Of a DNA stretch of 64,000 nt, positions 14,020 through 18,809 are shown piece after piece. The position numbers and the translations under genes are program-made. Under the pieces are notes generated by a model. It searched no databases. It worked only from the letters and a program-made list of their open reading frames with translations, and was not told the origin of the DNA. The DNA lies in the sequence record OR339795; one strand, given 5' to 3'. Numbering within the stretch: position 1 is the first letter of the stretch; the number at the start of each line of letters is the position of its first letter. This DNA is from Escherichia phage phi456.

Positions 14020-14301
14020 TTAAGAGGCATTTCTATTGAGGTGCGAATCGATAATCCTTTGTAACTTTTCAAGAATGAGCCTGTTATTGATGCTGCAAAT
14101 AATAGTCACGCAATTCTGAAGACTTTCATCCATACCCTTATATTCCGCGAAATACATGCCTATAAAGCCTGCAAGTACGGCAGCAATACACTCGGCCATC
14201 AATTGCCTGCATGACGCTTCGTAACGTTTTTCACGAACCCCATTCAGAAACGAATGCACCCCGCCAAGGATGGAGAGGAGCATTATTGTGAAATCACACA
14301 T
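14020..14301 (-). CDS. small membrane protein (holin-like)
   Basis: 93 aa with two hydrophobic segments; first ORF of the lyd-dar transcription unit. Confidence 0.35.
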   Translation of the reverse strand: MCDFTIMLLSILGGVHSFLNGVREKRYEASCRQLMAECIAAVLAGFIGMYFAEYKGMDESLQNCVTIICSINNRLILEKLQRIIDSHLNRNAS

Positions 14302-14428
14302 AACTATTTCCTTAATAGTGAATTAAATATCATTGGGAAACGGTATGTACTTTGTGATTTCCACACATACTGGTTTTTGTTAATTAAAATCCGCAGCTTG
14401 CTATAAATAACGATAGTGAGCAGAAAAT

Positions 14429-14473
14429 ATGCTAATAGGCTATGTACGCGTATCAACAAATGACCAAAACACT
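14429..14473 (+). pseudogene. cin: Cin/Gin/Hin-family serine invertase remnant (first 15 codons only)
   Basis: ATG then MLIGYVRVSTNDQNT, the conserved invertase N-terminus including the catalytic Ser context; all three downstream frames lose invertase similarity. Confidence 0.6.
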
Positions 14474-14772
14474 GCTTTACTCAGACGCCACCGGAAGGAA
14501 AAATACGTATTTGCGGAGAGAATGGACAACCCGCATGGGGGGATGTTCCTCCTCCAACGAAAGAAGAGCTAATGGCTATTGCAGAAGCCAGGAAATTAAG
14601 CTTAAAGGCTCAAGCGGACTTTGAAATCGCCTGGCGATAGGATGCGGTTGATGCCGGTATCGCGACGGATGAGGAAACCGCCGCGCTTTCTGAATCGAAG
14701 AAATGCCGGATCCTGCTGATGCGCGTTGATACAGCAAAACCCGTATGGCCTGTCAATCCGCAGGATATTTAA
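14464..14772 (+). pseudogene. tail fiber assembly protein C-terminal domain fragment (U'-like) with in-frame amber
   Basis: Frame opens next to the cin remnant: ...GKIRICGENGQPAWGDVPPPTKEELMAIAEARKLSLKAQADFEIAWR, then TAG at 14638-14640, then [43 protein letters not shown]. Resembles the conserved C-terminal domain of Mu/P2/lambda tail fiber assembly proteins. Confidence 0.5.
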
Positions 14773-14986
14773 CGGGGGCGTTGTAGGTGGTGACATATTC
14801 AAGCAGTTCTGTTGGATATGTCACCGTTGCTGCATCTCGCTCTACGTTAAATGTATCCGCTCCCCAGATAACACACTCCCTCAAAAATGCCTCCACCTCT
14901 GGCGAGACTTCAACCGCATCATCAGGTCGCTCTTGTTCAGAAACATAAAAACCAACGGTCGTTGGGCTGAAATACATATTCTCCAT
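14753..14986 (-). CDS. short ORF downstream of tail fiber gene (possible truncated tail fiber assembly U)
   Basis: 77 aa, 3 bp after the S stop; lacks the conserved C-terminal chaperone domain, which is instead found inverted on the plus strand. Confidence 0.35.
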
Positions 14987-14988
14987 AT

Positions 14989-17445
14989 TTAGTATCCTAT
15001 TGCTTCAAAATGCAAAGTCGGAATTTCGCCGAGATTGGGTGTCGTATACGACACAGTGAATCGCGTTCTTGATACGTCAGTGCCAGAATCAGTATCGCGA
15101 TGCGTTGCCAGTGATTTCCCAGCCATTGATGACTGGGTCGAAAAGCTGTAACTCGCTAGTGTTGCCAGCGTTGCTATTTGTGCATTTGGGAATTGTCTGG
15201 GGAAATTAACCCTGTAGTAATGGGTGTAGTACGTCACCCCACCAAGCACCTGCGCGTTGAAGTTACCAACTGGTGTCAGTGTCACAGTGCCAACCTGTCG
15301 AATCATACCATTTGGGAGAATATCCCAGGCAGTTTGTCCGTTTCGCGACATACCAAATGCGGACATGTCCGGGAGTTGATTATTACCGGTTCCGACATCC
15401 CGTTTTGCCGCTTCTCCCAATTGAAGGTATGCGAGAAGACCAGCAACATCCTTTCCACTCAAATTAGTCAGCGTATTGTCCAGCGGTTGTTTGCCCGCCA
15501 GTGCGCTCTGTACTTCGCTTTTGCTGTAGGCATCCAGATCTTTAGGCGTAAGCGTAATATCCTTCGTGCCGTCAAACGGAACGCCGTTGATATTCCGTGC
15601 AGTCTGTAGTTTTGTGGCAGTTGCAGCATTACCAGTGGTGTTCTGATTACCCGTAGTGTTTACACCTGGAAGATTAATATTGGCCGAGCCATCAAATGCC
15701 ACACCGCCAATCGTGCGTGCTGTTTTCAATTTCGTCGCGGTGTCGGCGTTCCCTGTCAGTGCCCCGGTGATCCCGCCGTTGAAAGTCTGGCGTGCACTCC
15801 ATGTGTTAGCCGTACTCAACAGGGGGATCTTTTCACCGCTGGTACCGAGTTCTCTTAAACCAAGGTATTGGATAACGGCCAGTGTGCTTGTTTTAGCCAG
15901 AATATCGCGACCGACTGACGTTAAATCAGTCTGAGCTACCGTATCCTTACCAGTGAAATAAGGCAGTTTGTTTGCACCAGTCGCAAGGGCAGCGAGAGCG
16001 GTTAAAGTTGCATCCAGAGGCTGTTTGCCTGCCAGCGCATTTGTCATTGTTGTCGCAAAGTTCGGGTCATTGCCAAGTGCTGCGGCAAGCTCATTCAGGG
16101 TATCAAGAGCTTCTGGTGATGAACCAACCAATGCGGATATGGCAGCTCTTACATAAGCGGTCGTAGCAATCTGCGTGTTATTCGTACCCTGTGCAGCGGT
16201 AGGCGCAGTAGGGACACCCGTTAATGCAGGGCTTGCCAAAGGCGCTTTGAGAGCCAAGGCATTGTTGATAGTTGTGCTGTAATTCGGGTCGTTATTGATC
16301 GCAGCAGCTATTTCTTTAAGCGTATCCAGTGTGCCAGGCGCACCGTTGATAAGTGCAGTTATAGCTGCCTTAACAAAGGCTGTATTTGCGATCTGCGTGT
16401 TATTCGTACCCTGTGCAGCGGTAGGCGCAGTAGGTATTCCCGTTAATGCAGGACTTGCTAAAGGAGCTTTAAGAGCCAGAGCATTGTTGATAGTTGTGCT
16501 GAAATTCGGGTCGTTATTGATCGCAGCAGCTATTTCTTTAAGCGTATCCAGTGTGCCAGGTGCACCGTTGATAAGTGCCGTTATAGCTGCCTTAACAAAG
16601 GCTGTATTTGCGATCTGCGTGCTATTTGTACCTTGCGCTGCCGTCGGCGCGGTTGGCGTTCCTGTCAGACTCGGGCTTTCTATTGGCGCTTTGGTATCAG
16701 CCAGATCTTTTATAGACTTAACAGCTTTAGGGGTAGCCGCCATTGTTTCGCTGTCGCTGTTAGTTGCGCTACTGAGCTGAACTAATCCCTTTTGCGTTGT
16801 GCTTGCATCCTGTGCCGTATACTTGCTTTTCGCCAGATCGTAGGCTTTTTTAACTGCCAGCGAACTTGCAGCAACATCACTTCTGGTACTGGTTACAGAG
16901 TCTGAAATATCAATGCCGATCGAGCGGTTGATACGCTCGGATGTATCAATCATCTCCTGGGTAATGGCAGATACACTAGCAGGGATATTCACCGTACAAA
17001 CAAGCAGCTCCCCATCTCCTAACTGATATGAATCGGTATAGGTTCTGGCAACAAATTCAGCCGCATGAATATGTGACGCGGTATTCACCTGGTAGGTATC
17101 TTCTCCAAGGAGGTATCTTCCCTTCAGCACAATTGCATATTTCTTGCCTGCACTAAGTGCAAGAGAAATATCCTTACGTTGCTGAATAGTTACCTGGTAA
17201 AATTCACCAATATCCACCGACGCCGCGCCTGCGGTTTTATCACCATCCACTGAGGTAATTAACAGGTTCATCCCACCGCCAGGCTTAGGTAAGAAACCGG
17301 CATAAAATCCCGGGTCAACAATCCCCCTGAATTTTCGGTTTAGCGCGGCTGACAGATATGGTTCGTGGTATTGCACATCGGCCACCAGAGCCAACGACTC
17401 GGATGATGGGTAAGTAACCGATGTAACAACTGTAACGTCATTCAT
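14989..17445 (-). CDS. tail fiber protein S (constant plus variable part)
   Basis: ORF 14989..17532; probable start at Met 17445 (MNDVTVV), 12 bp after R. Three 73-aa tandem repeats NALALKAPLASPALTG...KAAITALINGAPGTLDTLKEIAAAINNDPN typical of tail fiber shafts. Confidence 0.75.
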   Translation of the reverse strand: MNDVTVVTSVTYPSSESLALVADVQYHEPYLSAALNRKFRGIVDPGFYAGFLPKPGGGMNLLITSVDGDKTAGAASVDIGEFYQVTIQQRKDISLALSAGKKYAIVLKGRYLLGEDTYQVNTASHIHAAEFVARTYTDSYQLGDGELLVCTVNIPASVSAITQEMIDTSERINRSIGIDISDSVTSTRSDVAASSLAVKKAYDLAKSKYTAQDASTTQKGLVQLSSATNSDSETMAATPKAVKSIKDLADTKAPIESPSLTGTPTAPTAAQGTNSTQIANTAFVKAAITALINGAPGTLDTLKEIAAAINNDPNFSTTINNALALKAPLASPALTGIPTAPTAAQGTNNTQIANTAFVKAAITALINGAPGTLDTLKEIAAAINNDPNYSTTINNALALKAPLASPALTGVPTAPTAAQGTNNTQIATTAYVRAAISALVGSSPEALDTLNELAAALGNDPNFATTMTNALAGKQPLDATLTALAALATGANKLPYFTGKDTVAQTDLTSVGRDILAKTSTLAVIQYLGLRELGTSGEKIPLLSTANTWSARQTFNGGITGALTGNADTATKLKTARTIGGVAFDGSANINLPGVNTTGNQNTTGNAATATKLQTARNINGVPFDGTKDITLTPKDLDAYSKSEVQSALAGKQPLDNTLTNLSGKDVAGLLAYLQLGEAAKRDVGTGNNQLPDMSAFGMSRNGQTAWDILPNGMIRQVGTVTLTPVGNFNAQVLGGVTYYTHYYRVNFPRQFPNAQIATLATLASYSFSTQSSMAGKSLATHRDTDSGTDVSRTRFTVSYTTPNLGEIPTLHFEAIGY
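15850..15875. other. cix/gix/hix-like invertase crossover site inside S
   Basis: TTCTCTTAAACCAAGGTATTGGATAA resembles the Gin/Hin crossover site family as recalled (AAACC core, GGATAA half-site); lies where an Sc/Sv junction would be (about 290 codons from the S C-terminus). Confidence 0.45.
16060..16700 (-). repeat. tandem approx 219-bp direct repeats (about 3 copies) within S
   Basis: Near-identical DNA blocks, e.g. GCGATCTGCGTGTTATTCGTACCCTGTGCAGCGGTAGGCGCAGTAGG recurring at about 16158 and 16377; they encode the 73-aa protein repeat. Confidence 0.7.
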
Positions 17446-17456
17446 CAAGCATATCC

Positions 17457-17891
17457 TTATGCTGTAGTCGTGTTTATGGCCATAACTGCGGTATATGTTT
17501 TGCCCACATACAGCGAGTCTTCCTGGACACAAATAATGGCGATTGGCTTGTTCTCGTTATCCAGAACAACCAGAGTGTTGAATGGGTAGTTTTTCCCTTC
17601 CTGCAACTGGCTTTGATCAAGGTCCATTCGGACAGTAATTATCCCGCCTGAGTAGGTTGGGACGAGGTTGATGGTGCAAAATTGACTGGTCAGTTCTGCC
17701 AGTTCGAAAGCCTTTGGCAGTTCTCCAATCTCATAAGTGCCATCTCCTTTCTTAGTAACCAGCGAACTGGTACCGAAAACGGCCTTGCTGATTAAAAATC
17801 GAGAGCCTTTGTTAATGGACGATTCAGCGCGCCGCTGATAGTAATAGTCCAACAACTGACTCTTATAGAGGTTTGTTGAGACGTCAGACAT
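17457..17891 (-). CDS. tail fiber-associated protein (P1 R-like)
   Basis: 144-aa ORF immediately upstream of S in the same operon. Confidence 0.4.
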   Translation of the reverse strand: MSDVSTNLYKSQLLDYYYQRRAESSINKGSRFLISKAVFGTSSLVTKKGDGTYEIGELPKAFELAELTSQFCTINLVPTYSGGIITVRMDLDQSQLQEGKNYPFNTLVVLDNENKPIAIICVQEDSLYVGKTYTAVMAINTTTA

Positions 17892-17969
17892 GATTTTCCC
17901 TAATCAATGTTGTGAAGCCTCATTGTAAGATAAGTAACTTGTCACCCCGCCCTGCGGACGGGGTGATTA

Positions 17970-18809
17970 TCAGGCATCACTATCCAGCAGCAAATCATCT
18001 GCGCGGGTGCGATCAAACGTAGGCGTTGCTTTCACAATAGTGCCGCCCGGCGTTGCAGTGATCGGAGCGCTAATCGACGTAACTCCAGTAAGCGAAGTTG
18101 TATCCGAAGTTTCAAACCAGCAGTACGCTTTTTCGGTATCAGAAATCTCGTTCAAAGTGATCATGTCGGCGTGTTCATTTACAACAACCGACAAATAGAG
18201 CGTAAGCCCATCAAACACTATATGCAGTGGCAGTAGAGGCTTTACGAACTGATTAAACTTTCTGAGAATTTCTTCTGTAATTGCGGACTGATCTATCGTG
18301 CCAGTAATCCCCATTGTCCGGGCCAGGTCGTTTATGGGAATACTGATCATCCCTCTGGAAGTCAGAAACATCTCGCCGAATGTGCCGCCGGTAGTCTCCA
18401 GTGTGCTTTCAGGTATTAGAACCGTGCCATAGGGATGACGCTCAAGGTCCACCGGTGCATATATCGGATCCCATAAAACAGAAATACCGTTAAATTCGCG
18501 GTAAATTGTCTGGTTTATAGGGCGTTCAGTCCCCTTAAAGTGAATCTCATCAAGACGCTGTTGTAACAACATCGGAACGGAAGATGAGTTCGACGTTCTG
18601 ATAGTAAAGAACTGGCCAAGTTCATTTGTCCTGGTCTCCAGATCCTCCTTGCTCATGGAAAAAATAGACTTCCGGTTGGTAATTCGCTCCAACCATGGGT
18701 CAACAAAGGTATCCATCATTGACTGAACCAAATCAGCCAATGATTTATAGAGCAATGACTTTTGCTTAGCTGATGTAAGCCGGTTATTAAACCAGGAACG
18801 CTGCATCAC
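17970..18809 (-). CDS. baseplate/tail structural protein (P1 gp16-like)
   Basis: 279-aa ORF overlapping the stop of the upstream baseplate gene. Confidence 0.4.
   Translation of the reverse strand: MMQRSWFNNRLTSAKQKSLLYKSLADLVQSMMDTFVDPWLERITNRKSIFSMSKEDLETRTNELGQFFTIRTSNSSSVPMLLQQRLDEIHFKGTERPINQTIYREFNGISVLWDPIYAPVDLERHPYGTVLIPESTLETTGGTFGEMFLTSRGMISIPINDLARTMGITGTIDQSAITEEILRKFNQFVKPLLPLHIVFDGLTLYLSVVVNEHADMITLNEISDTEKAYCWFETSDTTSLTGVTSISAPITATPGGTIVKATPTFDRTRADDLLLDSDA

Follow-up and report, generated by a model that had tools for sequence, protein, structure and literature searches.

The closest described counterpart of the locus analysed here is the C-segment of phage P1, a host-range switch in which the invertase gene cin is accompanied by cixL, Sv', U', U, Sv and cixR. 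The gin/G-segment of phage Mu belongs to the same family of Din-invertase host-range switches, with convergent S and U cassettes, and is functional on a different phage backbone; homologies to Mu are recorded in the P1 annotation. In P1-like plasmids, truncated or altered cin genes and incomplete C-segments have been described and read as a loss of tail-tip switching (Venturini et al. 2019, PMC6906374), and lydC-cin-Sv'-U'-U-S is one of eight hypervariable regions (PMC9603915). Here we analyse a stretch of 64,000 nucleotides (nt) from Escherichia phage phi456 (record OR339795; hereafter the window), a P1-like phage-plasmid in which a stub of cin is followed by a fragment of a tail fibre assembly (tfa) gene, a 77-amino-acid (77-aa) open reading frame (ORF) and the fibre gene S. 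With a probability of about 0.9, we read this locus as the remains of a P1-type host-range switch (Cin with its C-segment) that a single illegitimate recombination destroyed and that is now locked.

The locus lies where P1 has cin and its invertible C-segment, between lydC on one side and S, R and 16 on the other, and it shares with P1 an identical cixR, an identical late promoter (LPs) and homologous R and Sc, the constant part of S. It differs in that 17 cin codons are all that is left, in that cixL, Sv' and the 5' third of U' are missing, and in its surviving Sv/U allele, which combines a gp53-like tip with the 77-aa partner, where P1 has a U protein of 175 aa. Plasmids pSvP1, pTZ20_1P and pJIE250-3 (PMC6906374) resemble it in their truncated or altered cin and incomplete C-segment, but their lesions are mediated by insertion sequences or come with a different partial invertase ORF, whereas the window has a clean microhomology join and has kept a U' fragment.

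Results

A cin remnant joined to a fragment of a tail fibre assembly gene

Over the lydC-cin DNA (window 14300-14480; P1 record L004, 1032-1212) the window is 99.4% identical to P1, and the identity within cin stops at 14480, after ATG...CACTGCTTTAC. A sequence-only reading of the window had proposed that the first 15 codons of the invertase gene remain; only a 5' stub is indeed left, but by alignment to P1 it comprises 52 nt, that is 17 codons and one further nucleotide (MLIGYVRVSTNDQNTAL). With P1 Cin as the query, tblastn recovered residues 1-19 only, and the ORF that opens at the cin ATG runs for 47 codons, out of frame into tfa DNA. No full-length Din-family invertase (about 186-190 aa, with a resolvase catalytic domain and a C-terminal helix-turn-helix) is found, and tblastn with P1 Cin and another Din invertase detected no second Cin-type gene in the 64 kb. 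The stub still encodes the catalytic-serine motif YVRVST of the invertase N-terminus, which shows descent from cin, not function. Taking the coordinates of the P1 annotation (L004: cin, 1161-1721; enhancer, 1179-1250, equivalent to cin nt 19-90), 34 of the 72 nt of the recombinational enhancer (sis) are kept and the distal 38 are gone, leaving no complete enhancer in cis.

A three-way alignment of the window, P1 cin and an intact tfa gene from Enterobacter kobei fixes the junction to single-nucleotide precision. The pentanucleotide TTTAC at this point belongs to both parents, cin (..CTGCTTTAC, continuing with AACG) and the tfa gene (..GAAATTTAC, continuing with TCAG), and the junction is therefore a microhomology-mediated illegitimate join. 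A diverged, independent cin on a D6-like plasmid of E. coli W444 (L013, 5104-5156) ends at the same nucleotide position (its last bases being GCTTTGC, near cin nt 52) and is joined there to unrelated DNA. This could be a coincidence, or the middle of the enhancer could be prone to breakage.

The DNA beyond the junction is the 3' part of a U'-equivalent tfa gene. It is 95% identical in aa sequence to the intact 141-aa Caudo_TAP protein WP_050885414 and matches PF02413 (Caudo_TAP) with E = 1.3e-21 over profile positions 36-131 of 131, scoring 77.5 bits against a gathering cutoff of 22.1 when the internal stop is read as Q. Intact 141-aa homologues occur in an E. kobei plasmid prophage and in P2-like prophages of E. 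coli; with respect to these, the fragment begins at codon 44. Codons 1-43 are absent, there is no start codon of its own, and the frame is displaced by +2 from the cin ATG, so the fusion is physical and not translational. The proposed fusion of the cin stub to the C-terminal domain of a tfa gene thus stands for the DNA, but what is joined amounts to two-thirds of the gene and is out of frame. The in-frame TAG of the same proposal is real, three intact homologues having CAG (Gln) at this codon. Three missense changes nearby (W to S, Y to C and V to I) are shared by the lineage, while S to F at 14621 is private to this window. Against the intact alleles we count five non-synonymous and one or two synonymous differences, a pattern that appears consistent with drift after inactivation. 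In sister plasmid pKBN10P04869B, the Prokaryotic Genome Annotation Pipeline (PGAP) calls the corresponding DNA a pseudogene of a tail fiber assembly protein, interrupted by a stop codon. As the sequence-only reading had advised, an intact tfa gene was sought elsewhere: tblastn with P1 U, P1 U' and the intact tail fibre assembly protein (TFA) found no other in the 64 kb. The locus therefore holds no intact, translatable Caudo_TAP gene, the fragment lacking its start and first 43 codons and carrying the internal TAG.

A complete fibre gene with two orphan crossover sites

On the other side of the lesion, S is a single continuous ORF of 818 aa, complete and fixed in one orientation. Its gp53-like tip is 95-99% identical to fibres of P1-like, D6-like, P2-like and lambdoid elements. 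The boundary between Sc and Sv, the expressed variable part, was mapped from P1 cixR: the site TTCTCTTAAACCAAGGTATTGGATAA, found once in the window against 0 occurrences expected by chance, encodes GLRELGTSG at aa 529, and Sc, the site and Sv lie in one S ORF. The gix/hix-like site that had been noticed inside S at the constant/variable junction is thus P1 cixR itself, matching in all 26 positions.

A second site, TTCTCCCAATTGAAGGTATGCGAGAA, is nested in Sv. A search for cixR with up to 3 mismatches failed on it, and it was revealed by homology to inverted repeats of prophages. It is unique in the window, shares its strand with cixR, at a distance of 438 bp, and is identical in sequence to the outermost part of the right arm in an inverted repeat of 74-76 nt, which belongs to invertase-adjacent cassettes of P2-like prophages (L010, the W444 prophage, 4650-4723/6018-6091; L002, 4519-4594/5889-5964). 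In order, these cassettes of about 1.4 kb contain an 83-aa alternative tip, tfa and, in convergent orientation, the 77-aa gene with its tip. The two P2-like prophages, one on the E. coli W444 chromosome and one on an E. kobei plasmid, and the lambdoid phage phi458 share with the window the same tfa allele or its 3' end, the 77-aa gene and the tip, and at the right arm they have exactly the crossover site of window 15412-15437. The repeats of the P2-like pair stand 1294 nt apart with an invertase gene adjacent, that of W444 being frameshifted; in phi458 the invertase is interrupted near IS1; the window has neither the left arm nor an invertase.

No inverted partner for either crossover site was found in the 64 kb, nor any inverted repeat within 14300-17500. 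An intact invertase and a second crossover site nearby had been named as evidence that would overturn the idea of a lost switch; a second site does exist, but on the same strand, and it comes with neither invertase nor inverted partner. Where a C-segment would hold two convergent cassettes of Sv and chaperone gene, one is complete here (Sv with the 77-aa ORF), and the other is reduced to the 3' two-thirds of U' with no Sv'. The earlier suggestion that the switch has been deleted and the fibre locked agrees with all this, as invertase, cixL, Sv' and inverted partner are all missing from the 64 kb while S is complete. Because Sv holds a prophage-type crossover site, the surviving cassette looks like a module of P2-prophage type nested in a P1 C-segment.

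Within Sc, we also observed a 222-bp tandem repeat (16169-16650; 2.2 copies, 92% matches), which corresponds to the repeated elements b1/b2 of P1. The S protein of plasmid pDC71-1 is 74 aa shorter, equivalent to one 222-bp unit, which suggests that the copy number of the repeat varies within the lineage.

The 77-amino-acid partner of the fibre tip

The 77-aa ORF (WP_001619155) is intact and stands where P1 has U. That it converges with the tfa fragment, as first proposed, is correct; the 3' ends overlap by 20 nt. The proposal went on to suggest that the assembly chaperone might have been left truncated, and this does not hold: 77 aa is the native length of the family, and an identical protein occurs in intact switches. 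Homologues from Escherichia, Citrobacter, Enterobacter and Phytobacter keep a length of 77-80 aa even where identity falls to 59%, and their alignment has 21 invariant columns. Identical WP_001619155 is annotated in pEC13-3 and in plasmid A of E. coli H8, where the invertible segment and the invertase are intact; there the cassette of Sv and the 77-aa gene is the silent one, opposite a full tfa and beside a 190-aa invertase. The same gene is found directly downstream of the same tip, and co-inherited with it, in P1-like, D6-like, P2-like and lambdoid elements. Its constant length and its presence in intact switches argue that the 77-aa gene is the native, cognate partner of the gp53-like fibre tip, and we predict that its product acts as an accessory protein or chaperone of the fibre. 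The ratio of non-synonymous to synonymous substitution rates (dN/dS) was uninformative for this gene, close relatives differing by too few substitutions.

The kinship of the 77-aa protein to canonical TFAs is weak. Its predicted fold is confident (predicted local distance difference test, pLDDT, 92), and a Pfam scan gave no match. It matches phrog_188 (TFA) with E = 8e-5, over residues 1-31 only, which amounts to a weak resemblance to the N-terminus of TFAs. Profile-profile and fold comparisons were negative or marginal: hhalign against a TFA alignment returned a probability of 0.6%, and the best viral match in Foldseek was a 60-aa 'tail fiber assembly protein' of phage LIMEzero, at a marginal E = 0.034. 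TFAs have two domains, a variable one at the N-terminus that binds the fibre and a conserved, helical one at the C-terminus for trimerisation (PMC9608196); under this scheme the 77-aa protein would hold only a part resembling the N-terminal domain.

Four other elements with a damaged or incomplete switch were inspected, namely two D6-like plasmids with a cin stub only (L003 and L013), phi458 with IS1 and an invertase fragment (L005) and the W444 prophage with its frameshifted invertase (L010). In all four, the cassette joined to the fibre gene is that of the gp53-like tip and the 77-aa gene. This bias could reflect selection, although the sample is too small to call it.

Distribution of the lesion

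Of 5426 complete E. coli genomes, 24 contain the 191-nt junction with 100% identity, in every case on a plasmid of 90-119 kb. PLSDB has it in 19 plasmids, whose sources are humans, pigs, a gull, sewage, a giant panda and Shigella flexneri. All plasmids with the junction are co-linear with the window over the whole path between lydC and the Sv tip, including the cin stub, the U' fragment and the 77-aa gene. Junction and amber codon occur together in the four lineage members that were fetched (4/4). All 24 genomes differ from the window by one mismatch over an 81-nt probe across the TAG (14600-14680), which is probably the window-specific single-nucleotide difference at 14621, as alignment confirmed in two members. 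Judged from the sequences, this distribution shows a single inherited event in a widespread plasmid lineage. S is 744, 818 or 1366 aa long among members bearing the junction; enough time has therefore passed since the lesion for S to diversify.

Damage to cin is common in this group of plasmids. The P1 cin region matched 516 plasmids in PLSDB and was covered to at least 80% in only 218; the remaining ones fall into recurrent truncation classes that end near cin nt 52, 140, 177, 212 and 236. Elsewhere, stubs of 59 codons stand beside a foreign invertase cassette (pEC13-3 type), and D6-like plasmids keep 17 or 39 codons. Many P1-like plasmids of the IncY group have such a 59-codon stub of P1-type cin next to lydC (L006, 9532-9708; L012, 7575-7751) together with another invertase of 190 aa, which is intact and oriented the opposite way, like gin of Mu. 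The combination of a 59-codon stub and a foreign invertase shows that whole cassettes have been replaced at this locus.

Genomic setting

Leftward on the minus strand around the locus are homologues of P1 ddrB, ddrA, darA, hdf, lydB, lydA and lydC; to its right are S, R, 16 and bplA. As read from the sequence, the R-S-77aa operon and its late promoter are intact (Table 1), and the operon would continue to be expressed. The closest public record, E. coli plasmid pDC71-1, has a single mismatch in 1801 nt, C to T at 14621, the change that replaces S by F in the inactive tfa reading frame. For the 28 kb beyond the window, pDC71-1 served as a proxy; the only recombinase that it has there is a Cre-like integrase. 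A promoter and terminator scan of 14250-15100 gave output at chance level, and a tRNA scan of the window found zero tRNAs.

Table 1. Positions of the switch remnant and of the fibre operon in the window.
Feature	Position	Strand	Basis
lydC-cin intergenic region, matching the annotated P1cin/P2cin promoters and ribosome-binding site of P1	14302..14428	+	Alignment, identical to P1
cin remnant, 52 nt	14429..14480	+	Alignment to P1 cin
Recombination junction, 5-bp microhomology TTTAC	14476..14480	.	Three-way alignment of window, P1 cin and intact E. kobei tfa
U'-equivalent tfa pseudogene fragment, residues 44-141 of 141	14476..14772	+	Protein homology, Pfam, PGAP in sister plasmid
Amber codon TAG	14638..14640	+	CAG (Gln) in three intact homologues
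77-aa ORF (WP_001619155), positional equivalent of U	14753..14986	-	ORF list, homologues, annotation
Sv, variable part of S, gp53-like C-terminal tip domain	14989..15862	-	Pfam PF21882, E = 2.1e-5
Second orphan site, Din-type crossover-like, nested in Sv	15412..15437	+	Identity to P2-like prophage repeat arm
cixR, orphan P1-type Cin crossover site at Sc/Sv junction	15850..15875	+	26/26 identical to P1 cixR
Sc, constant N-terminal part of S, ATG at 17445	15863..17445	-	92.8% aa identity to P1 S residues 1-415
R, 144 aa, first gene of the R-S-77aa late operon	17457..17891	-	100% aa identity to P1 R
LPs, late promoter of the tail-fibre operon	17922..17940	-	Window 17885-17975 100% identical to P1

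Discussion

We propose that the ancestor of this phage-plasmid carried a complete switch, of which pEC13-3 and H8 plasmid A, with their invertase and both cassettes, are intact counterparts. A single event would have fused cin, at its nt 52, to the convergent tfa gene of the silent cassette, at about nt 130 of the latter, the join lying at TTTAC. Lost in this event would be the catalytic body of Cin, the distal half of the Fis-dependent enhancer, cixL, the alternative tip Sv' and the first 43 codons of U'. Since invertase and inverted partner site are both absent, the segment should be unable to flip, and the late operon, R, S (Sc with its gp53-like Sv) and the 77-aa ORF, would be permanently expressed from LPs, presumably giving a single fibre type. 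Startless and without function, the U' fragment would then have drifted, acquiring the amber codon and the three missense changes. Both crossover sites probably survive only through their location inside the expressed coding sequence of S.

Some points weigh against this account. In the search for an ancestor, no intact P1-like plasmid with the exact U' allele was found, so that the ancestor has been reconstructed and not seen. Instead of a deletion in situ, the event may have been an import. Also, a Din invertase encoded by the host chromosome could conceivably act in trans, although the replicon would still have no inverted partner site.

The import is the alternative that survives best, and we give it a serious chance, somewhat short of even. 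By this account a fibre module of a P2-like prophage, made up of the 77-aa gene, the gp53-like tip and the last two-thirds of tfa, would have taken the place of several parts of a P1-like plasmid, namely the 3' part of cin and all of cixL, Sv', U', U and Sv. The left crossover, at TTTAC, would be illegitimate and the right one, inside S, homologous; the result would be the same dead switch with another history. The intact 5' portion of U' (14476-14622) is found only in chromosomal P2-like prophages, in 6 of 5426 genomes and in 0 plasmids, the prophage of E. coli W444 matches window 14476-15504 at 97.8% identity, and a crossover site of P2-prophage type sits in Sv. Replacement at the locus is moreover common, as seen from the other P1-like plasmids whose 59-codon cin stubs stand beside foreign invertase cassettes. 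The block formed by the 77-aa gene, the tip and the 3' part of tfa (from 14623), however, is already in circulation, at 96-97% identity, among P1-like and D6-like plasmids, and the ancestor may therefore simply be unsampled. Deletion in situ and import both fit and lead to the same present state; the distribution of the U' 5' portion favours the import, and the circulation of the cassette favours an unsampled ancestor.

Din-family invertases occasionally use quasi-sites, as known from the older P1 literature, and Cin itself might have made the deletion by recombining cix with a quasi-cix site. The cut of cin at the same nucleotide position in the D6-like plasmid would fit such an origin, but the junction is off any cix site, with cixR intact 1.4 kb away. 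By eye, neither of its parents is like the Din half-site consensus; they share TTTAC only, not a 26-bp site with a common central dinucleotide, and in other plasmids the cin breakpoints are scattered (about nt 140, 177, 212 and 236). As the junction sequences are not cix-like, we rejected this origin, which is very improbable.

It is extremely improbable, too, that the switch still works by means of an invertase supplied in trans, such as Pin of e14 or that of a P2-like prophage, together with a partner site elsewhere. Din invertases are functionally interchangeable, and two well-preserved crossover sites are left in the window. Against this stand the absence of an inverted partner from the 64 kb, the truncated enhancer in cis, the lack of any alternative Sv' to switch in, and the co-linearity of all junction plasmids with the window from lydC through the Sv tip. 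That truncation and stop are artefacts of sequencing or assembly has a negligible probability, and we rejected it on the identical junction over 191 nt in 24 independent complete genomes and the amber codon shared by the four members fetched.

A bolder interpretation of the dead switch would be that its orphan sites, one of P1 type and one of P2-prophage type, record an active exchange in which Din invertases, or recombination at the conserved sites, carry fibre-tip cassettes from chromosomal prophages to P1-like plasmids or back, that the tip has been selected for its receptor specificity, and that the 77-aa protein represents a minimal new class of chaperone, devoid of the trimerising C-terminal domain of TFAs; we consider this unlikely. 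The lesion itself is a routine pseudogenised remnant of a well-known system in which loss of cin and of the C-segment is already documented, and its importance beyond annotation is little. For the annotation, our analysis corrects the impression of a damaged fibre partner gene. For the biology of these elements, a phage-plasmid lineage represented by at least 24 sequenced E. coli/Shigella isolates, from several host species, appears to have lost host-range switching and to be left with one fibre type, which is relevant to predicting the host range and the transduction potential of P1-like plasmids.

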